Below, one piece after another: positions 1 through 48,109 of a stretch of 48,405 nucleotides of DNA. Within the stretch, counting starts at the first letter, position 1. Every line of letters begins with the position of its first letter. The notes below the pieces were generated by a model. The model was not told where the DNA came from. It worked only from the letters and a program-made list of their open reading frames with translations, and did not search any database. The stretch is from NCBI GenBank assembly GCA_030740155.1, contig JASLXV010000068.1:1-48405 (forward strand), in the 5' to 3' direction. Source of the DNA: Dehalococcoidia bacterium (lineage in GTDB: Bacteria > Chloroflexota > Dehalococcoidia > Lucifugimonadales > UBA3495). A program made the translations under genes and the position numbers.

Positions 1-237
1 ATAGGCAACTCCGGCTATTGCTTTCGACGGGTAGGGCTGAGAAGGATTGTTGCCATGCCGGTAATATAGAGGCCATGTCTGAGGGGGGCCGAACGTGCGC
101 TTCTTGCCCCTACCATCGAACCAATGATGATCTTCGAAAAACCTGTCGGGACCGAGCCAGTCATATTCATCAAGGGCTTGTACCACACAATCTTTGTCGG
201 TTAAGCCAGATAGCAATGGCCGTTCTTGTGTAGTCAT
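1..237 (-). CDS. Partial CDS (runs off window): N-terminal head domain of the type found in ScoMcrA-like HNH restriction nucleases and McrB-like ATPases
   Basis: Manual translation from ATG at 237 (preceded by GGGGATAAG) gives 79 open codons, MTTQERPLLSGLTDKDCVVQALDEYDWLGPDRFFEDHH...PYPSKAIAGVAY. This matches the remembered 'A..E.D.LG...F...YxSKAIxGVA' pattern. Not in the ORF track because its stop lies outside the window. Confidence 0.6.
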   Translation of the reverse strand, partial: MTTQERPLLSGLTDKDCVVQALDEYDWLGPDRFFEDHHWFDGRGKKRTFGPPQTWPLYYRHGNNPSQPYPSKAIAGVAY

Positions 238-31055: not shown

Positions 31056-32273
31056 ATGGTCGTGGAGTCGCCCTTAGCTTCAGGAACAGCGCGCATCGCT
31101 CGGAGAGAGCTGCTGCTCATTAGCTTCGCCGGGCAGGTGTTGAAGTATCTGAGCATCTCTGGCTTCTACATTCTGCTCCCCGGCTTACAGGCAGGTCTGG
31201 GGCTAACCAATGCGCAGATCGGCCTGGTTTCAACTTCAAGGAATGCGGCGTCCGCCGCAACGTGCCTCCCGGCCGGCGCCGCCACGGACAGGCTGCAGGG
31301 TAATGCCACGATCCTAGTAGGCCTGGGCCTGATCCTCTGCGGTCTCTCCATGGTCATCCTGGGCCTGGCCACCAGCTTGTGGGTGGCGGTAGCGGGGGCG
31401 TCGGCCGGCGGTATCGGCATGCTGGTGCACACGCCTGCCAGTGTCTCGCTTCTGGCGGCCAACTTCCCGGAACGCCGGGGCTTCGCCATCGCCATCTTCG
31501 GCGCGGGCGGCAGCGTGGGCCAGGTACTGGCTCCACTGGCCGCGGGAGGGCTGGCGGCGGCAGTGGCTTGGGAAACCGGGTTCTTGGCGATGGGCGTGCC
31601 GGTGATCGCCGGCGGAGTGGTTATCTGGGTCTGGTTGTCGCGGCTGTCGCTGGAGAAGCGTGGCGGCCTTTCCTTCTCCCAGTACCTGTCGACGGTGCGC
31701 TCCGCCGTATCCAACAGACTCATCCTCCTACTGCTTGCCCTGATGGTGTGCTACGGTCTGGTGGAGCCCGCGATCGTCACGTTCCTCCCGATTCATCTGG
31801 AGGTGGACCGGGGCTATAACACCTCGACGATGGCCCTCTTCATCGCGGGCTCCCAACTAGCCGGGATATTCAGCCAGCCGGCGTTGGGACACCTTTCCGA
31901 CAAGATCGGGCGGTTGGGAGTTCTGGCGGGCAGTTTCCTGCTTTTCGGTGCGACGGCACTGGCCGTTCCGCTGGTTGGGAAGGACCTTCCTCTCCTGTTG
32001 GCCATCCTGGCCATGGGGGTGGTGCTCTTCCCGTTGCTGTCCCTGTTCTTCACCGCCGTGACCGATGAGGCCGGCGAGGGAGCCCAAGGCACGGCCCTTT
32101 CGCTTACGGGGCTGGCATTCTTCCCCCGGGCAAGCGTTTCCCCATTCGCCGCCGGTCTGCTGGCGGATGCCTTCTCAGTGGGCGCGGTCTTCTACATCGC
32201 CGGAGGTATCGCCCTCGGGACGGGCTTGATAGCGGTTGCGGCGGCGTTCCGTCGCTCCACGTTACGGTTTTGA
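31056..32273 (+). CDS. MFS transporter
   Basis: About 12 TM helices; FPERRGFAIAI and GHLSDKIGR loop motifs. Confidence 0.9.
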   Translation: MVVESPLASGTARIARRELLLISFAGQVLKYLSISGFYILLPGLQAGLGLTNAQIGLVSTSRNAASAATCLPAGAATDRLQGNATILVGLGLILCGLSMVILGLATSLWVAVAGASAGGIGMLVHTPASVSLLAANFPERRGFAIAIFGAGGSVGQVLAPLAAGGLAAAVAWETGFLAMGVPVIAGGVVIWVWLSRLSLEKRGGLSFSQYLSTVRSAVSNRLILLLLALMVCYGLVEPAIVTFLPIHLEVDRGYNTSTMALFIAGSQLAGIFSQPALGHLSDKIGRLGVLAGSFLLFGATALAVPLVGKDLPLLLAILAMGVVLFPLLSLFFTAVTDEAGEGAQGTALSLTGLAFFPRASVSPFAAGLLADAFSVGAVFYIAGGIALGTGLIAVAAAFRRSTLRF

Positions 32274-33060
32274 GGCGCAGCCGGTCCGGTTGCAGCGTGA
32301 CCCTCATGTCGGCTCGGGATATCTGGAGATCCACGCCGAGCTTCCGGGCAAGCCGCCTCAGTTCGCCCTTGACCTGAACTTCCCACGGTGGGCTCATGTG
32401 CGCCACAATCACCTTCGGCAGGTAGCCTCGCTCCTCGTTGAAACTTACCAACGCTTCTTCGAGCAAGTTAGGGGTCAGGTGGCCAACCTCCAAGGCCCAG
32501 GCCTCGTTCTCGTTGCCAAAGGTGACCTCGGCGAGCAGCGTGGTGGGGGTAACGTGCTTCCAGGCCTCGCATAGGCCCCGGCCCGTGTCTCCCGTGTAGA
32601 ACAGGGAAACGTCGCCCGACGCAATTTGAAAACCCGCGGCAGGAACCGAATGGGGAACCGGGACGGCCGTCGCGGTATAGTCGAGTACCTTGAATTCCTG
32701 GTAGAACTGGACCGGGTGAAGGCGAAGCGTGGGGTTCTCTGGGCTTGGAAAGTTGAGTGGGTCGGGGAAGAGACTTCCGTCAAGCAGCTTGGCGGCTACG
32801 AACTCGATGGTGTCCGGTATTGCGTAGACATCCACCGTGACGCCGGTGTTGCGCAGGGCAAGGCCAATGGCGGGTAGGTCTCGCACGTGGTCGAAGTGCC
32901 TGTGGGATAGGATGATTGCGCGAATGCCCAGCTGTTCGTCGAAGCTCAACGCTCTGGTGATGCTCCCGGCGTCCAGGGCCAATACCCCATCGATCAGGTG
33001 GGACTCCATACGGGTATGCTTGCTCTCCATGTTGTGGGCGCCGAGGACCCGAAGCTCCAT
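32104..33060 (-). CDS. MBL-fold metallo-hydrolase (cyclic-nucleotide phosphodiesterase class II-like); C-terminus probably over-extended
   Basis: MELRVLG, LDAGS, SHRHFDH, VPHSVP, YTGDTG, VGHLTP, VAHM; the last ~57 codons overlap the convergent MFS gene. Confidence 0.85.
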   Translation of the reverse strand: MELRVLGAHNMESKHTRMESHLIDGVLALDAGSITRALSFDEQLGIRAIILSHRHFDHVRDLPAIGLALRNTGVTVDVYAIPDTIEFVAAKLLDGSLFPDPLNFPSPENPTLRLHPVQFYQEFKVLDYTATAVPVPHSVPAAGFQIASGDVSLFYTGDTGRGLCEAWKHVTPTTLLAEVTFGNENEAWALEVGHLTPNLLEEALVSFNEERGYLPKVIVAHMSPPWEVQVKGELRRLARKLGVDLQISRADMRVTLQPDRLRLKTVTWSDGTPPQPLSSPSRGRYLRRCRRPRPLRRHPPADRRRMGKRLPGGRMPAP

Positions 33061-33233
33061 GAATCCATCCCCTTGAGTCAGCCGCGGTGAGCGATTCCAA
33101 TGCATTATTCCGCCACCCCATACAATGATACCGTTGAAACGCCGCCCCAAGCAAACCCGGCGGCAGGGTTCCGGCAATTTATCTTTCGAAACTCCCGGCG
33201 TGACGCCTGGCCATGAAAGTACTCCGGAATATA

Positions 33234-33331
33234 ACACCCTGAGTGAAGCGACGGGGCGGGGCGGTGGGTCAAGGCTTCGATGGTGAAACCCCGCACCAGA
33301 TTCCTCGTCGCTTCGCTCCTCGGAATGACAG
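33234..33331 (-). repeat. REP/MITE-like element copy 3
   Basis: Reverse complement reads CTGTCATTCCGAGGAGCGAAGCGACGAGGAATCTGGTGCGGGG...GACCCACCGCCCC..CGTCGCTTCACTCAGGGTG. Confidence 0.85.
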
Positions 33332-33525
33332 CAGGGCTTCGCTCCCCGGAATTACGGGTTTGAGGCAAACCTCCGCTGTGGGGAAGGGGTTCTATCTGAG
33401 ATGGCGGTTTCGTTTGTTGTCCTGGGGGGCGCCGGGGAGTGTTCTGAGAGTTTGGGAGCTATGACCAAAATGAGAATGGAGCCGGAGCAAGAGTGGAAAC
33501 CCGGAAGGGCGGTTAACGTGTTGCC

Positions 33526-35254
33526 ATGGAAGAGCGTTCGTTGAACCCGGACAAAGAGGGCCCCGGCGGCATTCCCGGGCCTGGACACAGGGAGGCCGGG
33601 GACGAGGTGTTCCATCGGCTGCCCCAACGGCAGGTGAAACTGACCCTTGCCGGGGTCCTGCTCGCCCTGTTCCTGGCGTCCCTTGACCAGACCATCGTGG
33701 CCACCGCAATGCCTCGGATCATCTCCGACCTGGAGGGCTTCGACCGGTACACCTGGGTAACGACCGCCTACCTGGTCGCTTCCACCACCGTCGTGCCGAT
33801 CGTGGGCAAACTGACGGACATGTACGGCCGGAAGTGGTTCTACATCGCGGGGATCGGCATTTTCCTGTTGGGCCCGGTCCTGGCGGGCACCAGCCAGACG
33901 ATGACCCAACTGATCGTGTTCCGGGGACTGCAAGGGATCGGCGGCGGGACCATGCTGGCCAGCGCCTTCATCGCCATCGGAGACCTGTTTCCCCCGGAAG
34001 ACCGGGGGAAGTACCAGGGAATTCTGGGCGCGGTGTTCGGGCTCTCCTCGGTCATCGGGCCCACCTTGGGGGGGCCTGGTTACCGACCAGCTCTCCTGGC
34101 ACTGGATCTTCTTCATCAACCTCCCCTTGGGGATTCCGGTCATCTTGCTGTTCATAGTGTTCTTCCCGCAAATACGGCCCTCCTCCGCGAAACACCAGCT
34201 CGACTACCTGGGGATAACCACTCTGGTGATGGCGGTGGTGCCGTTGCTGCTGGCCCTATCCTGGGGAGGCGTTCAGTATGAGTGGGGCTCGAGCCAGGTC
34301 CTAGGAACGCTGGGTTTTGCGGGCCTGATGGCCGTTGCCTTTGTCGTCATCGAGGGACGGGTGTCTGAGCCCATCATTCCCCTGTCGATCTTCCGCTATC
34401 CCGCGGTAACCGTTTCCCTTCTGGCTACCTTCCTGACCGGCTTCGGAATGTTTGGCGGCATCATGTTCGTCCCCCTCTTCTTCCAGGGCGTGCTGGGGGC
34501 CTCGGCCACCAACAGCGGGAGCTTCTTGACTCCGATGATGCTCGGCGTGGTGGCGGGCGCCGTCTTATCGGGGCAGGCCCTTTCCCGTTTCGGAGGAAGA
34601 TACCGGCTCCAGGGCCTGGTGGGGATCGGCATCATGTCCGTGGGTGTCTTCCTGCTTTCCCGGATGTCCCCGGAGACCAGCAACAGCCAGGCCGTGACGA
34701 ACATAGTCCTGATGGGCTTTGGGGTGGGGATCAGCTTCCCCGTCTTTACCATCGCCGTTCAGAACGCCGTCCCCTACCGGGTCCTTGGGGTTGCCACTTC
34801 CTCAATTCAATTCTTCCGGTCCATTGGCGGCACCATGGGCCTGGCGGTTCTCTGATCGGTGATGACCAACCGCTTCGCTTCGGGACTGACCGGGTCGCTC
34901 CCGGCCGACGTGAAAGCAGCCATGCCGCCGGGGCAGCTCTCGGCATTGGCGGAAAACCCCCAGGCTCTGCTGAGCGACGACGCGCTGACCCGGCTTGGAG
35001 CCGGGTTTAGCCTGGCCGGCCCCCAGGCCGAAGACCTGCTGGCGAAGCTGCTCGATACCTTGCGGCAGGCCCTCTCGAACTCAATAGATGATGTTTTTAA
35101 GATCAGCTTGGTGGTGATTCTGGTCGCCGGTCTGGCCACCCTCTTCCTGAGAGTGGTCCCCTTGCAACCGGTTCAGACGGTTGAGAAGGAAAGCCCGCCG
35201 GAGGGACGGGGCACGCCGGCACTTCCCGGAGAAAACGCCGCCGGGGATAGCTGA
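33526..35254 (+). pseudogene. DHA2/MDR family MFS efflux transporter with a frameshift and a premature stop
   Basis: LDQTIVATAMP, GKLTDMYGRK. A +1 G in the G7 run 34068-34074 interrupts [23 protein letters not shown]; TGA at 34853-34855 within GLAVL*SVMTNRF. Confidence 0.85.
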
Positions 35255-35720
35255 AGGCCGCAACTGGTTGATGACATGCCCGGGCCGATGTTTCTTTGGA
35301 AGGGCCGGGGGGAACCCATGATCGCGGGAAAGGCTACCCTACCCAATTGTAGCTAGGCCGTCCACCTGTGCCTGGTCGGGGCGCGCCTTTCCTCTCGGCT
35401 AATTCTAGTAGCCCTCATGGCGCTGTTTGATTTGCGAGCTGGAACAACGTTGAGCATAGCTGTATTGGCCGGCATTTCCGATTCAGGGTAAAGGTGAGAT
35501 GCGATAGATCGGAATCTTCATCTCGGGCGCAGTCGCTTCTTGAACTCTTTGGCAGTCAATCAGCGTGGGCTAACCTAGAATGTTGGATCTACCCCCGCAG
35601 GGGTTCAATGGGATTAGGGTGGGCACGTCCCCTGGAGCCAAGAGGGTGTGGGCAGCATAGGTCTGGTGTGACAGAATTGCCGAACCTCCCTCCGGGAGAT
35701 TCGAGTCCCATGGAGCATCG

Positions 35721-36924
35721 ATGAAGCTCCCCACATTTGCCCGCGAGATCAACGCTCCGGCGTTGTGGGCGGGGCTGACCGCTTTCGTATGGTATGCCTT
35801 TGGTGCGGTGCCACTGCACATCGCTGTCGCGGGCCAACTTGGCCTGACCTCCGGTGAATCTTCAAGCTGGATATTCATTATCTGGACCAGCGGAGCCGTC
35901 GCTTCCATTGCGCTTTCGCTGTTCTACCGTATGCCGATTCCGATTACCTGGAGCATCCCTGGGCTGATCTACCTGGGTACCCTGGTGGGCGAATTCTCCT
36001 TCCCCGAAATGGTGGGGGCGAACCTTGTAGCGGGTCTGTTGATCCTGGTCCTTGGGCTCCTGGGCGCCGGTGGACGAATCATGACCTGGCTGCCGCTGCC
36101 CATCGTCATGGGGATGTTCGCCGGGAGTATTTTTTGCTACGTGACTCGCCTGGTGAGCGCCACCGTTGACGATGTCTTCGTGGCCGGTCCGGCGGTCGGG
36201 GGATACCTGCTGGGCCGTCTAATTGGAAACCCGCGGGTACCTCCCGTTGGACTCGCCGTGGTATTTGGGGCGATTGCCATCCTCATCGGCGGGCAGGCCA
36301 CTCCCGAAGCCATGTCTTGGAGTTTGCCATCCCTTGCCGTCCCCAGCATGAGCTTCTCGACGTCAGCTGTAGTCGCGATCAGTATACCCATGGTTGTTCT
36401 GGCGCTGGGACTGGGGAACGTCCAAGGGTTGGGCTTTCTGCTGGGGCAAGGCTACAAGGTGCCGGTCAATCCAATATCGGTTGTGATTGGCATCAATTCG
36501 GTAATCAACTCTCTGCTGGGAGGACATCCGGCGATAGTAGCTCGTACCGGGGTGGCAATTATGGCCGGTCCCGAAGCCGGGCCGATGCCGACGCGGTACT
36601 GGGCCAATCTCGTCGCCGCCACGCTGACCATGATCATTGCTCTCGCCGCCGGGCTCGTGATCCCCATTCTGGCCGTTCTACCGAAATCGTACGTGTTCGC
36701 CTTGGGCGGGACTGGCTATCATCGCATCCCTCCAAGATGCCTTTGAGAAGGCTTTCAGCAGCCCATTACGCTTCGGGGCGTTGGTGGCATTTGCCGTGGC
36801 GGCCACGCCGTTCTCGTTCATGGGAATCACGTCGGCCCTGTGGGCAGTGGTTGCGGGGCTGGTTGCATCGCTGGCAGCGGAACGGCCCCCACTGCTGAGC
36901 TATTGGCGGGAGATGCAGGATTAG
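35721..36924 (+). pseudogene. BenE-like benzoate/H+ symporter family protein with a +1 frameshift near 36704
   Basis: SSWIF, YRMPIPITWSIPG, QGYKVP. Removing one G in TTGGGCGGG restores ALAGLAIIASLQDAF...FMGITSALWAVVAG to TAG at 36922-36924. Confidence 0.8.
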
Positions 36925-37019
36925 ATAGCTCCGAAAGCCCTGATAACAGCGGTGCGGGCCGGCGCTTGCCGTCCTGGACACGAGCTTCCGGTAACCTGCC
37001 CGTGCCTTGCCCCGGGTTT

Positions 37020-37853
37020 CTACAACCTTTGCCAAACTCGGCGCCCTTCTACCCGCACTATCTTCCCGAATCCGGGGGCCGGCAGGTGCACCGCGGCCAC
37101 CGGGATACCCTCCCGTTCCAGCCGGTCAAGCACGGAGAGGCGGGTGATCCGGGCCTGTTCCGGGTCGATGTCGGCCCGGGAGGCCCAGCCGGTCTCGTGG
37201 AACTGCGCCGTGTTGTGGGCAATGTCGCCCAGAATCAGCCCGCGCTGGCCCTGGGAGCTGATCAGGATACTCATGTGACCCGGCGTATGGCCGGGGGTCG
37301 GCAGGGCGGTCAGCTCGCTGGTTATGGCCTGTTCTCCGTCGTAAAACTCGATCAGGCCCAACTCTTCCAGCGGCCACACGCACTCGGGAGCGTTCGGGAA
37401 CCGGCTTGGTTGAAGCTCTGGGTTGTGGCACGCTTCCCAGTCCTTGGCGCTGATCCAGTAGCGGGCGTTGGGGAAAGTGGGCCGGAACTTTCCCCCCTCG
37501 GACCGGAGGTTCCAGCCCACGTGGTCCCGGTGCAGGTGGGTCATCACCACCATGTCCACATCCTCGGGCCTGATTCCCTTGGCCCTGAAGTCGTTGAGCA
37601 GCTCGCCCCAGGGGGTCTCCGGTGTGGGTTTGGGACCCAGGCCGGTATCCACCACGATGGTCCGGCCATCGGAGCGGACCAAGAAGCAGGCGAGGTTGAA
37701 GCTGACCTTGTGCTCCGGGGTGAGGTGGTTCTTGTAAGGGCCCCAGTCCTTTTCTGGGATGGCGGGGAAGAAGTTGCAGAGGTCGAATTCAAGGATTCCG
37801 TCCGACAGGGAGGTAATCTCTACGTTCCCGATTGACATAACGTTTTTTGCCAT
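37020..37853 (-). CDS. MBL-fold metallo-hydrolase (lactonase/OPHC2-like)
   Basis: VVDTGLG, THLHRDHVGWN, TPGHTPGH, LGDIAH, HLPAPG. Confidence 0.92.
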   Translation of the reverse strand: MAKNVMSIGNVEITSLSDGILEFDLCNFFPAIPEKDWGPYKNHLTPEHKVSFNLACFLVRSDGRTIVVDTGLGPKPTPETPWGELLNDFRAKGIRPEDVDMVVMTHLHRDHVGWNLRSEGGKFRPTFPNARYWISAKDWEACHNPELQPSRFPNAPECVWPLEELGLIEFYDGEQAITSELTALPTPGHTPGHMSILISSQGQRGLILGDIAHNTAQFHETGWASRADIDPEQARITRLSVLDRLEREGIPVAAVHLPAPGFGKIVRVEGRRVWQRL

Positions 37854-37956
37854 GGTCGTTCTCCTCTCACCCCGTGGAAAGATACCCAGCGGCGGAAACC
37901 TATTCGTAATTGGGGGTCCCGGAGAGGCTTTGCCCGGCTCGCCGGCTGGACTGTTG

Positions 37957-39174
37957 TTACTCCCGCTGCCGGCCCCGCTTGTCGGAAACCACTCGTCCCT
38001 CTTTGATCACCAGCAGCAGGCTCCGGAGGTTTTCTATATCCTCCAGCGGGTTTCCGGCTACCGCGATGAGGTCGGCGAACTTGCCGGCAACGACGGTCCC
38101 CAGGTCCTGCTCCCTGCCGCAGAGGGCGGCGGCGTCCCTGGTGGCCGCCAGCAGCGTCTGCCAGGTGGTGGCGCCGTCCTTGACCCAGAGCCCCATCTCC
38201 AGCAACGCCGACTCCCGCAACGGCCGGATGTCCGACCCCAGCGCCATTCGCAGCCCGGCGCTGAGGGCGGTCTGGAACCAGCTCCGGTGCTCCTCGGACG
38301 CCGCATCCGCCCGCCGGACCAGGTCGGGCGCCAGCTGCTTCTCTTCCACCCAGCGTTTCTCCGCGCCGGAGGTGGCCTGCCCCGGCGTCAGGTGGGTGAT
38401 GGCCAAAGTGGGGACGTACCAGACCTCTCGCTCCGTGAGCATCTGAATACACTCTTCATCCATCATGTACCCGTGCTCGACGCTGTGGGCGCCCAGGCTT
38501 ACGGCGGCCTTGACCGCGTCCGGGTTGGTGGCATGGGCCATCACCTTGAATTCACGCTGGTGGCAGATAGCGAAGGCCGCCTCCAACTCCTCTCTCAAAA
38601 GGAACGAGTGCTGGTGCAGGTCCCAGGGAGGCCCCATGACGCCGCCGCTCAGGTTCAGCTTGATGTGGTCCACGCCGTTCTTGATCTGGTCTCGGACGGC
38701 CTCGACGAACCCGTAGGGACCGTCGCATTCCCGGGCGTGTCCCGACCTGAGGAAGTGGCCCGCCGTCGTGGTCAGAAAATGGCCGCAGGCGAAAACCCTG
38801 GGCCCGGCCACCCGGCCCTCTTCGAAAACCCGCCTCCAGGCTACGTCCATGAAGTTGGCCGCGCCCCCGGTCCGGACTCCCACGATACCCGCTTCGGTCA
38901 GGCCTTGCATCAGGGTTTGGCCGAACTGGGCAGTCTGCTCCGCGACGGTCAGGGCGGGCAGAGCGGTATATTCCGGGTGGTAGTGGACGTCCCAGAGGCC
39001 GGGCAGAAGATAGGCGCCTTCGAGGTCGACGACTCGGGCGTCCCGGGTGTCCGGAGAGCGCCGGCCGTCCAGCACTTCAACGATCCGGCCTTCCTCCACA
39101 ATGACGCTGGCTTCAGGGACCGGCGCCGGGTTTACGCAGTCGATCAGGTTGCAGTTGGTCAGGACCAAACGCAT
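37957..39174 (-). CDS. Amidohydrolase family protein (prolidase-like)
   Basis: LLPGLWDVHYH, GVDHIKL, VMAHA, SVEHG, ALGSD, GKFADLIAV. Confidence 0.92.
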   Translation of the reverse strand: MRLVLTNCNLIDCVNPAPVPEASVIVEEGRIVEVLDGRRSPDTRDARVVDLEGAYLLPGLWDVHYHPEYTALPALTVAEQTAQFGQTLMQGLTEAGIVGVRTGGAANFMDVAWRRVFEEGRVAGPRVFACGHFLTTTAGHFLRSGHARECDGPYGFVEAVRDQIKNGVDHIKLNLSGGVMGPPWDLHQHSFLLREELEAAFAICHQREFKVMAHATNPDAVKAAVSLGAHSVEHGYMMDEECIQMLTEREVWYVPTLAITHLTPGQATSGAEKRWVEEKQLAPDLVRRADAASEEHRSWFQTALSAGLRMALGSDIRPLRESALLEMGLWVKDGATTWQTLLAATRDAAALCGREQDLGTVVAGKFADLIAVAGNPLEDIENLRSLLLVIKEGRVVSDKRGRQRE

Positions 39175-39417
39175 GGGAGCCTCCTGTGGGTAGAGACTAC
39201 GCGGCTGTCATTTGGGTGTCGAACCCTTGCCGGCTGTCATCATACATCAAAAAGGCGCCAACCGATTCACGGTTGGCGCCTAGCCGGTCTCGATGGCCGG
39301 GCTGGCGGTCAGGACAGCACACGGGGCTGCCATTGGTGGCAGCCCCGTTTACGCCGATGGGACGATTTCGGAACGGTTGCGTCCCTGCCTCTGGTCATTC
39401 GTGCCAAGGGGCGAGGG

Positions 39418-39723
39418 CTATGGTGCGGGCGCCAAGACGGCAGGGGTCTGCCGGTCCAGCTCTTTCACCTCGATGTTTGAGACCAGCACCATCAGCTCGT
39501 CCAGACGCCGGACCTCGAACTCCAGGAAGTCATCGTCGACCACCATGTAGCGGGATACGACCTCCCAGATTTCCCGCTTCATGCCCTCCATCTTCTCCGG
39601 GGAAAGATCGAGCCGGTCGTGCATCAAGACCAATTGGAGGCGTTGACGAGCGGTGTCCTTGGTGCGCTCCCGATCTTTATTAATCTCTCGTTGACTGAGC
39701 AACCACCGTAAGAATTCAAGCAT
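39418..39723 (-). CDS. minE: Cell division topological specificity factor MinE
   Basis: TKDTARQRLQLVLMHDR...MKREIWEVVSRY; follows minD. Confidence 0.93.
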   Translation of the reverse strand: MLEFLRWLLSQREINKDRERTKDTARQRLQLVLMHDRLDLSPEKMEGMKREIWEVVSRYMVVDDDFLEFEVRRLDELMVLVSNIEVKELDRQTPAVLAPAP

Positions 39724-40534
39724 GTGAATAGGCTCTCCCATTCAAACCTACGAGTCCCTTGAACTTGGACAGCAGGCCCGATTTTGCCGTTACCTCCACT
39801 AGGGGCACCTCATCACCGTCCACCCTGGCCGCGATCCGGAGGAACGCGGCGCCTGAGGGGGCTTTCTTGTCGTGAACCACGGGGATCCCGCGGTTGGAGG
39901 CGGTGATGGTTTTCTCATCCGCGGGCACCAGGCCCAACACCTCTACCGCCAGCAGGTCCACCACGTCGCGCATGTCCATCATGTCGCCACGTTTCACCAT
40001 CTCCGGGTTGATCCGGTTGATGATCAGGCGGGGCTTGTGTAATTCCGCCGCCTCCAGCAAGCCGATAACCCGGTCGGCGTCGCGAATTGCCGACACCTCG
40101 GGGGTTGTGACGATGATGGCCTCCGTGGCGGCGGCAACGGCGTTCTTGAAACCCTGCTCGATGCCCGCGGGGCAGTCCATGAGAACGTAGTCGAACTCCT
40201 GCTCCAGCTTGGCGCACACTTCCCGCAGCTGATCGCGGTCGATACTGTTCTTGTCCCGCGTCTGGGCCGCCGGAATCAAGTACAGCTCGTACTTGTGCTT
40301 ATCGCGGATCATGGCCTGGTGGAGCTTGCAATCGCCCTCGATCACGTTGACCAGGTCGTACACAATCCGGTTCTCCAGGCCCATGACCACGTCGAGGTTG
40401 CGCAGGCCGATGTCGGTGTCCACCACCACTACCTTGTGGCCGCGCATGGCCAGCCCGGAGCCGATGTTCGCCGTGGCGGTGGTCTTGCCGACCCCGCCTT
40501 TCCCTGATGTAACTACTATGGTCCTACCCTTCAT
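39716..40534 (-). CDS. minD: Septum site-determining protein MinD
   Basis: TSGKGGVGKTT, DIGLRNLD, DCPAGIEQG, PEVSAIRDADR; C-terminal amphipathic helix. Confidence 0.97.
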   Translation of the reverse strand: MKGRTIVVTSGKGGVGKTTATANIGSGLAMRGHKVVVVDTDIGLRNLDVVMGLENRIVYDLVNVIEGDCKLHQAMIRDKHKYELYLIPAAQTRDKNSIDRDQLREVCAKLEQEFDYVLMDCPAGIEQGFKNAVAAATEAIIVTTPEVSAIRDADRVIGLLEAAELHKPRLIINRINPEMVKRGDMMDMRDVVDLLAVEVLGLVPADEKTITASNRGIPVVHDKKAPSGAAFLRIAARVDGDEVPLVEVTAKSGLLSKFKGLVGLNGRAYSHA

Positions 40535-41312
40535 ACAGTATGCCTCTGCTGTATCTTGCGAACCGGCCCGTGAATGGCGACACGTATATGGAACGCCGCC
40601 GCACGTAGGCTATCCTGGGGCCGGTCGCCGTAGTTTTGGACCTCTGGCCGGTTGCCGGGGCCAGGCCAATATGAGGGCCGATTTGAATTCGGGGGGATTC
40701 GAGTTCGAGGGCGATAACGGTTGCCTTGGGGTCTCCCCCGGCGCCGGCGTGGGCCAGACCCCGCAGGCATCCGAACACCACGATGTCGCCGTCGGCGGTG
40801 ATCTCGGCTCCTGGGTTCACGTCGGCCAGCACCACCACGTCTCCCGCGTAGTTTATGGACTCGCCGGAGCGAAAGGTCTCTTTGATAAACAACGCCTCGC
40901 CAGGCACACCCTTGAGCGACCCCGCCGACCCCGGCAGCCGCATTTCCGGTTGGCTGGAAGGTGGAGCTTCCACGGCCTTGGACCGCACGGGTTCCGGCGG
41001 CCGCTCGGCAACTGCGGCGGCTACGGCAGCGGCATCTAGTCCGTCCAGGTCGCCTGGGGAACACCAGAACCGGCTGACGGTCAGGCCCGACTCCGCTTCG
41101 ATGACCCCTTTGATCCGGCTCAACTGGTCCCGGAAGAGAATCCGCCGGCCCGCGTTGACGCTGATGGTGCCGCTGGACCACAGCCTCCGGTTTTCCACCA
41201 GGTATTCCCGCAGCCTCTCCGACACCTCGTCAAAAGGCCCGGTATCGTCGATTGCGAAATCGACGTTGGCCCCCCGGCCCGAAACCTGGACCACACTGGT
41301 CTTCAGCGCCAC
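40524..41312 (-). CDS. minC: Septum site-determining protein MinC
   Basis: TFRSGESI..GDVVVLADVNPGAEITADGDIVVFGCLRGLAHAG beta-helix. Confidence 0.93.
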   Translation of the reverse strand: MALKTSVVQVSGRGANVDFAIDDTGPFDEVSERLREYLVENRRLWSSGTISVNAGRRILFRDQLSRIKGVIEAESGLTVSRFWCSPGDLDGLDAAAVAAAVAERPPEPVRSKAVEAPPSSQPEMRLPGSAGSLKGVPGEALFIKETFRSGESINYAGDVVVLADVNPGAEITADGDIVVFGCLRGLAHAGAGGDPKATVIALELESPRIQIGPHIGLAPATGQRSKTTATGPRIAYVRRRSIYVSPFTGRFARYSRGILYEG

Positions 41313-41606
41313 CGCACCCCCGTTACGCACATTATGTTATCTAAGTTTATAGCAGTGTGATCCGGCAGATTTCAAGTCTCTGGGAGGCTGTTTTTAGCCA
41401 ATTTTGAAATTTGTTTGAAGTTGTCATTTCTATTCGCGCCTGCTAGTCTTTTCTAGAGAAGACCGCGCCGGACCACCCCGGGGGCCTTCGAAAAAGTGAA
41501 CGACGCCGGATCATGCAACATTCCGCCGCTCAGGCGCGCCCTGATCCCACGTTTACATAAGACCATCCCCCAAGTCAGGGAAACCACGGCGCCCGAAGAC
41601 AGGGCG

Positions 41607-45382: not shown

Positions 45383-45411
45383 TTGACGCCCGGTTGGGCC
45401 ACCGGTAGAAT
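45383..45411 (+). promoter_or_regulatory. sigma70-type promoter of the UGSC operon
   Basis: TTGACG-N17-TAGAAT. Confidence 0.65.
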
Positions 45412-45509: not shown

Positions 45510-46583
45510 TTGCAACTGCTTTCACACACCTTCAAGGTGCCGGATATCGCGGCGGCTGTGGAATTCTGCTACCAACAGGGCTGGACCGACGGGCTACCGG
45601 TGGTGCCGCCAACCCAGGAAGCGATCGAACGGATCATCGACTATCTGGGCCGTGACCCCAAAGAGGTGGTGGGCATCGTCAACCCCCGAAACGGCATCGC
45701 CACCATCGAGAAGATCGCCATCAACTGCGTCATGGCCGGGTGTCTGGTCGAGTACGTTCCCATCGTCATCGCCGCCCTGGAGGCGATGCTGGAGGAGCCC
45801 TTCAACCTGAACGGCGTGCAGACAACGACCCATTGTTGCGCCCCGCTGGTTGTCGTGAGCGGCCCGGCTGTGAAGAGACTGGGGTTCAACACCGCGGAGA
45901 GCGCGTTGGGCCACGGCTCCCGGGCCAACGCCACCATCGGGCGGGCGGTGCGCCTCATCCTCTGGAATATTGGGGGCGGTCTTCCTGGCGAGCCGTGCAA
46001 AACCACCCACGGCCACCCCGGCTACTACAGCTTCTGCATCGCGGAGAACGAGGACGTCAACCCTTGGGAGCCCCTCCACGTTGGGCTCGGATTCAAAGCG
46101 GAGGAAACGGTCGTCACCGTCGCCGCCGTGGAGTCACCGCATTCCATCGGCACGGGTGCCGGGTACACTTCCTCTGATGATGTACTCTTCGTTATTGCCG
46201 ACGCGATAGCGACCCTGGGCAGCAATAACCTGAGTGGCGGAGATATGGTATTGGCCCTGGGGCCCCTGGCGTCGGAAAACCTATCCAAAGGCGGCTACAG
46301 CAAGCAGGATGTGGTACGGGAACTCATGGAGCGGGCCGTGCGCCCGGTCCGGGAAGTGAAGCGCAAGCATTCCATCGCCCCGGTAAGCCCGTTCCACTGG
46401 AACAAGCTGGTCGACCCCGGCGACGACGAAGCCCTGGTGCCCTTCATCCGGAAACCGGAGAACCTGGTCATCCTCACCACCGGAGGTTGGGGGTCCCTCG
46501 GGGGCTTCGCGGGCCTCTTCCCCGGCTGGGGCAGCCTGGGAGGCCTCAATCAGAGCAAGGCCGTTCACTTTCCCAAAGCGTGA
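45510..46583 (+). CDS. Uncharacterised protein of the family that accompanies UGSC (seleno)proteins
   Basis: GWTDGLPVVPPT, ATIEKIAINCVMAGC, RANATIGRAVRL, IAENE..NPWEPLH; TTG start after GGGGGAGG. Confidence 0.85.
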   Translation: MQLLSHTFKVPDIAAAVEFCYQQGWTDGLPVVPPTQEAIERIIDYLGRDPKEVVGIVNPRNGIATIEKIAINCVMAGCLVEYVPIVIAALEAMLEEPFNLNGVQTTTHCCAPLVVVSGPAVKRLGFNTAESALGHGSRANATIGRAVRLILWNIGGGLPGEPCKTTHGHPGYYSFCIAENEDVNPWEPLHVGLGFKAEETVVTVAAVESPHSIGTGAGYTSSDDVLFVIADAIATLGSNNLSGGDMVLALGPLASENLSKGGYSKQDVVRELMERAVRPVREVKRKHSIAPVSPFHWNKLVDPGDDEALVPFIRKPENLVILTTGGWGSLGGFAGLFPGWGSLGGLNQSKAVHFPKA

Positions 46584-46593
46584 TAGGAGGACC

Positions 46594-47115
46594 ATGGATA
46601 TACTACTGTTTGACCCGGTGGGAGACATCGATTTACCCGAGCGGGCCGAGGAGAAGGTCCTGGATACGCTCAAGGGCAAGGTTGTCGGCTACATATTCAA
46701 CCAGCACAACTCGTCTCTCGTTTTCTGGAAGCACCTGGAGGAGAACGTGGAGAGCGCCCTCGAGCCCTCCAGTACCCTGAAAGTCTACAAGCCGAACACT
46801 TGGGCGCCCGCGCCCAAAGACAAGATCGAACAGGTAATCCAAGAGACGGACTTCGCGCTGGTTGGGGTTGGGGCTTGAGGGTCCTGTACCTCCGCCGCCG
46901 TGCGCGACGGGATTGCCCTCAAGAGTGCCGGCCACCCCGCCATGGTCCTGGTGCACGATGTCTTCGAGAAGGCGGCCCATGCCCAGGCCACGGCCCTGGG
47001 GATGCCGGACCTCCGCATCTACGTGTTCCCTCAGCACCGGCCCGGCGAGCCCGACGAAATCGAGATCGAAAAAGCAGCCCGGGCAGCGGAGGCGTTAGAC
47101 TCGAACCTGCTCTAA
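46594..47115 (+). CDS. UGSC family selenoprotein (Sec at TGA 46876-46878)
   Basis: Track ORFs 46594-46878 and 46900-47115 are in one frame, separated only by TGA in ...VGVGA-U-GSCTSAAVRDG. This gives a 173-aa protein with a UxxC motif; AGGAGG RBS. Confidence 0.88.
46879..46918 (+). promoter_or_regulatory. Candidate bacterial SECIS hairpin
   Basis: Immediately 3' of the UGA, GGG-TCCTGT can pair with ACGGGA-ttg-CCC; an alternative apical hairpin is CCGT-gcgcg-ACGG. Confidence 0.4.
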
Positions 47116-47165: not shown

Positions 47166-47200
47166 GCGCCGATGGGGAGTTTTCCGTCGGCGCCCCCTTT
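47166..47200 (+). terminator. Probable terminator after the UGSC operon
   Basis: GCGCCGATGGGG-agtt-TTCCGTCGGCGC followed by CCCCTTT. Confidence 0.55.
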
Positions 47201-47420: not shown

Positions 47421-47448
47421 TCGACAGCAATTTGGCCAAAGTTATAAT
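47421..47448 (+). promoter_or_regulatory. Possible sigma70-type promoter for the archaellin gene
   Basis: TCGACA-N16-TATAAT. Confidence 0.45.
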
Positions 47449-47506
47449 TTCCTTTTGGTGAGGTGGTGGAGGTGTGGAAGGAAATTCCCGGAGGGGGAGC
47501 CGGCCC

Positions 47507-48109
47507 ATGCTACCTCCGAAGACTGAACAGCTTCGGAATGAATCGGGCATCATCGGCATTGAGGCGGCCATAATGGTGATTGCCCTCGTGGTCGTCGCGG
47601 TCGGCTTCGCTAACGCCGCGATAACCTCCGGCGTCCTCTTCTCCAACACGGCCCAAGAGACCATCCAGAGTACATTGGGGCGCCTGGATGTCATGGAACT
47701 CAGGGGCTCGGTCGTTGTGACCGCCTCCACCACTGGCGCCTCCGGCGTGGTGTCGGACATAGTCCTCCAGGTGGCTAGCGCCGGCGGCGGGGAGTCCATC
47801 GACCTGACCCCAGGCAAGATAATCGTCAAGTATTCCGACTCGAGCCAGTCCAGGACATTTGACTCCCCTTCCAGCTTCTCGGTGACGGGACTTGGCAGCA
47901 CCGACTCGGACATGTTCCTGGAGCCGAACGAGTTGTACGAAATCAGGCTGAGCGGCCTGGACTCGACCGTGGGCGGTTCGGACCAGCTCGCCAACCCCCT
48001 GGGCCCCGACACGATGTTCAGCCTGGAATTGATCCCGCCCAACGGCTCGGTGTTGCTTGTCCAACGGAGCACACCCACCTCCCTAGACACAATCATGCGG
48101 CTCAACTGA
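47507..48109 (+). CDS. Archaellin (archaeal flagellin, ArlB/FlaB-like)
   Basis: Class III signal peptide LRNESG|IIGIEAAIMVIALVVVAVGFA, MELRGSVV, AGGGESIDL, DSDMFLEPNELYEI, FSLELIPPNGSVLLVQRSTP. Confidence 0.88.
   Translation: MLPPKTEQLRNESGIIGIEAAIMVIALVVVAVGFANAAITSGVLFSNTAQETIQSTLGRLDVMELRGSVVVTASTTGASGVVSDIVLQVASAGGGESIDLTPGKIIVKYSDSSQSRTFDSPSSFSVTGLGSTDSDMFLEPNELYEIRLSGLDSTVGGSDQLANPLGPDTMFSLELIPPNGSVLLVQRSTPTSLDTIMRLN

Follow-up and report, generated by a model that had tools for sequence, protein, structure and literature searches.

A predicted UGSC-family selenoprotein and its partner protein in a marine Dehalococcoidia genome, with a proposed relation to GrdB and PrdB

The window analysed here, a stretch of 48,405 nucleotides from a Dehalococcoidia bacterium, carries at 46594–47115 (+) a gene for a UGSC-family protein of 173 aa, whose in-frame TGA codon is almost certainly read as selenocysteine (Sec). 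The protein probably acts as one enzyme with the product of the gene immediately upstream, a 357-aa partner. By analogy with D-proline reductase, we propose, with a probability of roughly 0.5, that the UGSC protein would be the Sec-bearing catalytic subunit of a two-component reductase, performing a PrdB-like reductive cleavage together with this partner. As a UGSC family member the locus is unexceptional, and the family, its Cys homologues and its fusion with the partner are published already. The relation to GrdB/PrdB, the predicted non-thioredoxin fold and an expansion to 28 copies were not found in the accessible text of the literature searched, which covers few subscription journals.

Reading frame and decoding of the TGA codon

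Translation from the ATG start gives 94 amino acids, the TGA at 46876–46878, a further 78 amino acids and a TAA stop, and there is no other stop in the frame. The codon lies in the motif GVGA*GSCTS, which would place Sec95 three residues ahead of Cys98. An earlier note on this DNA had described the two apparent open reading frames as one 173-codon frame broken only by this TGA, and both the translation and a Pfam domain spanning the codon support that description. The read-through protein matches PF24696 over residues 6–168 (113.4 bits, cut-off 25), so that both halves belong to one domain. Its sole family match in NCBIfam, NF041046, reached 83.3 bits (E = 1.7e-23), which is below the cut-off of 125. 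Judged by these scores, the predicted protein is inside the Pfam family and outside NCBI's naming threshold. A Shine-Dalgarno-like AGGAGG (46585–46590, +) is located in the 10-nt gap between the stop codon of the partner gene and the start of the UGSC gene.

The motif U/C-G-S-C occupies residues 95–98. Among 121 aligned sequences, positions 95 and 96 are invariant and the Cys at +3 is retained in 99%. In the 150 best full-length proteins from a library of 1.8 billion entries, scored at the protein level, the column of the TGA holds Cys in 143, Ser in 4, Thr in 2, Gly in 1 and Trp in none. The host genome has 28 full-length UGSC domains and one fragment, and all 28 have TGA at the aligned codon. 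When loci were fetched by the partner protein alone, 65 of 70 contained a UGSC domain. The 102 foreign domains in these loci comprise 98 with TGA, three that are cut or N-masked, and one with Cys (locus L120), which is the one Cys codon seen in DNA. The expectation of Cys or UGA at this position in homologues was thus confirmed. The statement in the earlier note that UGSC proteins are a predicted selenoprotein family with Cys homologues and no established function agrees with the Pfam match and with the published family, which is described as being without established function in the accessible text of PMC13188914. The window protein resembles the family (PF24696; NF041046; PMC2398784, as far as accessible) in its domain, its UGSC motif, its Sec/Cys variants and its marine occurrence, and it differs as a member of a diverged subfamily whose predicted SECIS stem is shifted by about 2 nt from that of most paralogues.

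DNA nearly identical to this locus is present in seawater metagenomes. Four runs were aligned from 22 listed with matching DNA. Contigs of three of them, namely two runs of seawater DNA from separate studies and one of an RNA library, cover the TGA codon with no other letter, and the fourth run stops short of it. Because contigs of independent runs have the same TGA, the codon is not an assembly error; the TGT or TGC that an error would have left appeared in none of the three runs that cover it. Contigs of the RNA library overlap parts of both genes, one of them across the junction, and they prove neither transcription nor a shared transcript.

The earlier note had also placed a hairpin right after the codon. 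Folding of the single sequence did not bear this out, as four folds after the UGA gave z values from −0.53 to +0.87 and 65–164 of 200 shuffles folded as well. What stands of the claim is an element farther out, at 46891–46911, that is backed by covariation. Counting the U of the UGA as 1, a stem between +16..21 and +27..32 is 85% paired in the 28 paralogues, with 17 double changes (0/500 shuffles; slid controls, 22–48% paired; a 9-pair version was also scored), and the stem at 46891–46911 is 91% paired in 39 distinct subfamily sequences, with 11 double changes (0/500 shuffles); since both structures were drawn from these same, related sequences, the shuffle and slid controls are inflated. In 32 subfamily genes, taken from Chloroflexota, Betaproteobacteria and a small number of otherwise labelled contigs, codons +7, +8 and +9 each have a silent third position that never varies (32 of 32). 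Outside codons +5..+11, none of 43 four-fold columns is invariant (median 0.56, maximum 0.88). In these alignments, the frozen silent sites are an independent sign of an RNA element.

The conserved element starts 13 nt past the UGA and has a 7-bp stem with one mismatch and a 5-nt loop, CGUGC (46899–46903), with G in the second place. Published rules for bacterial SECIS elements, as given in the accessible text of PMC13188914, ask for a loop of 3–9 nt with G in the first two places, a stem of 4–16 bp, a distance of 16–37 nt from the UGA and at most −7.5 kcal/mol. With its loop 20 nt past the UGA and −9.3 kcal/mol, the element agrees with all four of these rules in a structure drawn from these related sequences, and 46891–46911 (+) is likely the SECIS of the window gene. 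Two other registers were set aside. A 4-bp stem with the loop GCGCG is 93.6% paired yet shows no covariation and was uninformative, and the usual stem register of the family has four of nine pairs broken in the alignment of the window gene, for which the shifted register was preferred.

The host genome (3.6 Mb, completeness 93.7%, contamination 7.65%) has the full Sec machinery. The earlier note had predicted selA, selB, selC and selD, and all four were detected above curated cut-offs: a genome profile search gave 549 bits for selA, 323 for selB and 377 for selD, and tRNA-Sec scored 69 bits, with the anticodon tca assigned by ARAGORN. The selD gene contains one TGA itself. The best named relatives of the neighbouring gene are from Dehalococcoidia, with identities of 93–95%. 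In a phylum-wide sample, selA occurs in 10 of the 10 genomes that have UGSC, but also in 90 of 120 overall, which is a weak association.

An alternative is that no selenoprotein is made, the TGA being a genuine stop or a Trp codon, or having arisen by nonsense mutation or sequencing error. Database clusters that store the 94-aa N-terminal piece as a protein have 58–227 members, many genes here, the partner gene among them, terminate with TGA, and the single-sequence hairpin is unremarkable. Against these points stand the TGA codons in every full-length paralogue and in nearly all foreign domains, full-length homologues with Cys and never Trp, a domain that spans the codon, the frozen silent sites, the agreement of other runs and the complete Sec machinery. 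Moreover, the truncated piece was modelled with a pLDDT of 0.52 against 94.8 for the whole protein, the two values coming from different methods. The alternative thus retains hardly any probability. A word-indexed search with the read-through protein matched only two proteins because Sec forms are stored cut in that database.

The TGA at 46876–46878 also falls at a catalytic-type position, unlike other stops in the window, as had been pointed out before: the sole other listed intragenic TGA (34853–34855) has no Cys-type context. It interrupts an MFS transporter gene in pieces (33526–35250, +), in which two overlapping frames both match MFS_1 and 132 more coding-like codons follow the TGA; this gene looks like a decaying gene or the result of assembly errors, and not like a Sec gene. 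Elsewhere in the window, a BenE-family transporter gene (35721–36898, +; 322 of 378 profile positions matched) has an apparent frame shift near its end, and a complete minC-minD-minE cluster occupies 39418–41330 (−). An archaellin-like gene (47474–48109, +; PF01917 above cut-off) stands alone behind a strong promoter match at 47421–47448. Archaellum genes are reported in SAR202 and other Chloroflexota in the accessible text of PMC12488501.

The partner gene and the expansion of the pair

The partner gene (45510–46583, +) has a TTG start, and a gap of 10 nt separates its TGA stop from the UGSC gene. A sigma-70-like promoter match (45383–45411, +), situated about 100 nt ahead of the TTG, agrees at 10 of 12 positions; it is a consensus match only, in a scan that found three sites where 0.6 were expected. 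Downstream of the UGSC stop, a G+C-rich inverted repeat of 10 bp (47166–47193, +), which was found by eye and was not called by the terminator scan, is a possible end of the two-gene unit.

A profile search gave no Pfam or NCBIfam match for the partner protein, and at least 7,228 of 8,000 scored proteins are its relatives. By eye, its residues 70–127 match the alignment shown for 'Unknown_1' in Figure S1A of PMC2398784, in the accessible part of which Zhang and Gladyshev noted the UGSC/Unknown_1 fusion in 2008. The invariant polar residues of the partner are Asp27, Arg145, Asn153 and Glu179, and Cys78 and Cys176 are conserved at 95% and 92%, respectively.

A partner gene on the same strand lies within 826 bp of 27 of the 28 UGSC genes in the host genome, and one UGSC gene is without it; partner loci number 33 in total. 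Eleven of the 28 UGSC genes are fused with the partner in one frame, two of them being apparently broken in the partner part, and the partner domain is present in 26 of the 150 best library proteins as Cys-type fusions. The similarities among UGSC proteins correlate with those among their partners (rho 0.44 for 26 pairs, 0/2000 permutations; rho 0.25 for the 16 unfused pairs, 43/2000), a correlation that duplication as a unit explains without physical contact. Around 41 close loci, no conserved neighbour besides the pair was observed; the most frequent were PrpD-like (10 loci) and TcuA-like (five loci) genes. The neighbours of the UGSC copies in the genome are mostly catabolic genes, as judged by eye from N-terminal sequences. 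We regard it as probable that the UGSC protein and its partner act as one enzyme.

Four stand-alone partner genes occur in tandem after one separate and one fused UGSC gene on contig C62 of the host genome, G000 (31155–39469), which suggests that one Sec subunit may serve several partners.

The 28 UGSC paralogues have a top pairwise identity of 75% and a median of 27% (378 pairs), so that they are old paralogues and not strain contamination. The family was found in 25 of 30 relatives, including 18 of 18 from the same taxonomic family, with 24 matches in a genome of the same genus and 2–12 in other genera. Among the matches listed, which leave out 33 further ones, every UGSC gene of these relatives has the TGA. 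In the phylum-wide sample, 10 of 120 genomes have UGSC, with one or two copies each. Among the genomes searched, the expansion thus seems confined to this genus. In the GOS survey, UGSC ranked fifth in abundance among selenoprotein families, with 255 sequences (PMC2398784, as far as accessible). The accessible text of the UGSC literature searched, including PMC2398784, does not mention a multi-copy expansion or a near-constant partner.

Chloroflexota and Betaproteobacteria also have a subfamily of longer UGSC proteins (L060, 410–961; L092, 9052–9588; L111, 2733–3281; and similar loci), with U-G-T/S-C-T/A-P-A motifs and an insertion ahead of the Sec strand, and the locus L092 holds six UGSC genes within 15 kb. 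A contig labelled Candidatus Bathyarchaeia (L101, 6196–8023) has a UGSC gene with an in-frame TGA and a partner, without the usual hairpin after the UGA; either it is mis-binned or it stems from a Bathyarchaeon that uses Sec and has a 3′ SECIS. Two genomes from a different Chloroflexota family have a long UGSC frame, of the size of a fusion, head-to-head with selA at a distance of about 140 bp (G043 C134:2868–4813; G068 C112:2570–4509).

Profile matches support no fewer than 37 Sec genes in the host genome, namely 28 UGSC, six GrdB, one PrdB-like, GrdA and SelD. The largest published selenoproteomes comprise 57 and 63 members according to the accessible text of PMC13188914. A rough scan, which is not a census because some known Sec sites were missed by it, gave 124 TGA codons flanked on both sides by coding-like sequence, about 10 more of which are Sec-like by motif when examined by eye. 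Good hairpins accompany the in-frame TGAs at C13:6701 (−), C25:26307 (+), C89:24970 and 25165 (+), C93:22654 (+), C95:42306 (+), C21:14940 (+), C12:8343 (−), C32:113661 (−), C74:61407 (−) and C79:13945 (−). By eye, these extra sites include a ferredoxin-type UxxC protein, a thiolase-like protein and two sites in one gene, and the remaining ones are in DUF3179-, Trx-, SelW- and rhodanese-like proteins and two Prx-like proteins.

Predicted folds and relation to GrdB and PrdB

The model of the UGSC protein (121 sequences; pLDDT 94.8) has five strands alternating with helices, and Sec95 sits between the strand 87–93 and the helix 96–111. Its best structural matches are flavodoxin, receiver and binding-protein domains, with Z scores of 9–10.6. 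Flavodoxin/CheY-like domains (1sd5, 1kjn MT0777 and 8s7v chain H) share the topology with an rmsd of about 3 Å over 110–140 residues; the identities are only 6–14% and many unrelated families tie, so that no function can be deduced from them. No thioredoxin, GrdB or PrdB chain was present among the fold matches listed, which therefore offer no structural anchor for a comparison with GrdB/PrdB. The order of strands and helices in thioredoxin differs from that in the model. Judged by the listed matches, the predicted fold appears to be flavodoxin/CheY-like and not the thioredoxin fold that the describers of the family supposed in the accessible text of PMC2398784.

These features bear on the possibility that the UGSC protein is a general thioredoxin-like thiol-disulfide or peroxide oxidoreductase, as the family's first description assumed, with the partner as a client or an unrelated neighbour. 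The modelled UxxC motif, which follows a strand and opens a helix, would suit such a protein. The alternation of five strands with helices and the absence of thioredoxin among listed matches with Z up to 10.6 speak against it, and 28 diverged, partner-tied copies fit substrate-specific enzymes better than a housekeeping function. We consider this possibility distinctly unlikely. The genes next to the 46594–47115 copy include none for thioredoxin or thioredoxin reductase, and the host genome has one thioredoxin reductase match above the cut-off and two close to it.

Profile comparison links the Sec site to the glycine and proline reductases. With hhalign, the 121-sequence UGSC alignment matched the C-terminal region of GrdB/PrdB with a probability of 96.9% (P = 1.5e-10, score 69.6, 96 columns), the GrdB/PrdB sequences having been extended through their TGA and family identity checked on three of them. 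The probability was 95.6% against GrdB alone and 91.8% against the PrdB-like sequence alone, and Sec was aligned on Sec. When the Sec and +3 columns were masked on both sides, the match still reached 94.5% (score 53.4), whereas none of 48 control families from the host genome exceeded 33% (score 30.7). When 32,351 genome segments with the TGA masked were searched with a GrdB/PrdB HMM, the seven true genes came first, and UGSC Sec sites were 11 of the next 20, these matches being individually non-significant (E = 0.13–28). The reverse search with a UGSC HMM speaks against the link, as it gave no enrichment of GrdB and a single Sec site of a GrdB, at E = 52. Taken together, the profile comparisons support homology between the predicted Sec region of UGSC and the Sec-containing C-terminal region of GrdB/PrdB, with single-HMM support in one direction only.

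The homology extends over about 95 of the 173 residues, the part of GrdB/GrdF/GrdH (TIGR01917, TIGR01918) and PrdB (TIGR04483; PF07355) around Sec that aligns with UGSC. It comprises a strand, U-G-x-C, a helix and an E-x-x-G-x-P-x-V strand. Both types of protein are encoded with a larger second subunit. UGSC proteins differ in lacking the 200–350 upstream residues that form PF07355 in GrdB/PrdB. No PF07355 match was present for the 121 UGSC members among the matches listed (25 families), and the window protein has no PF07355 or TIGR01918 match, its locus being outside the seven PF07355 matches of the genome. The redox selenoprotein of 173 aa with a UxxC motif that the earlier note had proposed is supported, and the description was incomplete, having missed the partner found with 27 of 28 copies, the expansion to 28 copies and a relationship with GrdB/PrdB in place of thioredoxin.

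The genome also encodes true GrdB (six genes), PrdB-like (one), GrdE (eight matches) and GrdA (one) proteins elsewhere than the UGSC locus, so that the UGSC pair is a separate system. This marine bacterium thus has a single GrdA for six complete GrdB genes and eight matches to GrdE. The GrdB genes are on contigs C17, C54, C69, C79 (two) and C91 of the host genome; the residue at +3 of Sec is Cys in four and Ser/Gly in two, and three of them read UGSC themselves.

The relation to GrdB/PrdB also admits a non-redox role, in which Sec would be a covalent nucleophile for sulfur, alkyl or acyl transfer or for hydrolysis and the partner would bind the substrate. The Sec site is related to a family that uses Sec as an SN2 nucleophile (PMC11229817, accessible text), and Cys does not always occupy +3: nine of the 150 library proteins have Ser there, one genome copy has Gly, and several GrdB have Gly/Ser. 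The near-universal Cys at +3 in the 121 aligned sequences, as expected of a resolving thiol, weighs against this role, which we judge to be fairly improbable.

The relationship covers one subunit only. The partner is unrelated to the pyruvoyl proteins GrdE/PrdA (0.5% against the alignment of the GrdE paralogues of the genome), and the UGSC locus has no PF09338 match. Class I fumarase alpha, GrdE, GrdB and PrdB were each rejected as relatives of the partner, as profile comparison gave only 0.3–0.6%. The partner was modelled with a pLDDT of 95; its best match among solved structures has a Z score of 5.1, and one Foldseek match has E = 6e-4 with a TM score of 0.16. By this model, the fold search shows neither a known nor a new fold. 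PDB sequence searches with either protein or either alignment gave nothing below E = 0.01.

A metal or Fe-S site formed by Sec95/Cys98 and Cys78/Cys176 of the partner, which would make the pair a lyase, a hydro-lyase or a metal(loid)-handling enzyme, is suggested by the more than 90% conservation of the two partner cysteines and by a weak likeness of the partner model to class I fumarate hydratase alpha (Z = 4.7 and rmsd 5.3 over 193 aligned residues; Foldseek probability 0.5–0.6), a likeness to serine dehydratase being weak as well. These structure scores are, however, in the commonplace range (Z below 8), a set of 18 fumarase-alpha sequences reached only 0.3% in profile comparison, and the fumarase alignment begins at residue 83, past Cys78. 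We regard such a site as unlikely.

Proposed reaction and implications

The two-component reductase that we favour is modelled on D-proline reductase, in which Sec of PrdB attacks the alpha-carbon of the PrdA-bound substrate and the Cys variant is inactive (PMC11229817, accessible text). By analogy with D-proline and glycine reductases, the partner would bind and activate a small organic substrate. The Sec95 selenolate would then attack this substrate and cleave a carbon-heteroatom or heteroatom-heteroatom bond, and Cys98 would resolve the adduct to a selenenyl-sulfide. Electrons may come back via the conserved cysteines of the partner and/or thioredoxin, and the 28 diverged copies would serve different substrates. 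Because the partner is not a pyruvoyl GrdE/PrdA protein, substrate activation must differ from that in these reductases, and because it has no match to GrdE, GrdB or PrdB, the reductase analogy covers only the UGSC subunit. The near-absence of Cys replacements in the subfamily fits a selenium-requiring reaction, as in PrdB.

A wider and more tentative reading is that UGSC and Unknown_1 would constitute a third, unrecognised branch of the glycine/proline reductase superfamily with a non-pyruvoyl activating subunit whose fold lacks a clear counterpart among solved structures, diversified in substrate into 24–28 copies in this genus for bond breaking in dissolved organic matter. If this reading is true, no other component of the selenoproteome, which counts at least 37 genes, would be as large as the UGSC expansion.

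With a defined partner and a link to GrdB/PrdB, what was an 'unknown redox protein' becomes a testable enzyme hypothesis. Because gene callers cut UGSC proteins at the UGA, surveys of marine Chloroflexota metabolism miss them. The presence of at least 37 Sec genes in a 3.6-Mb genome bears on the selenium demand of the ocean.
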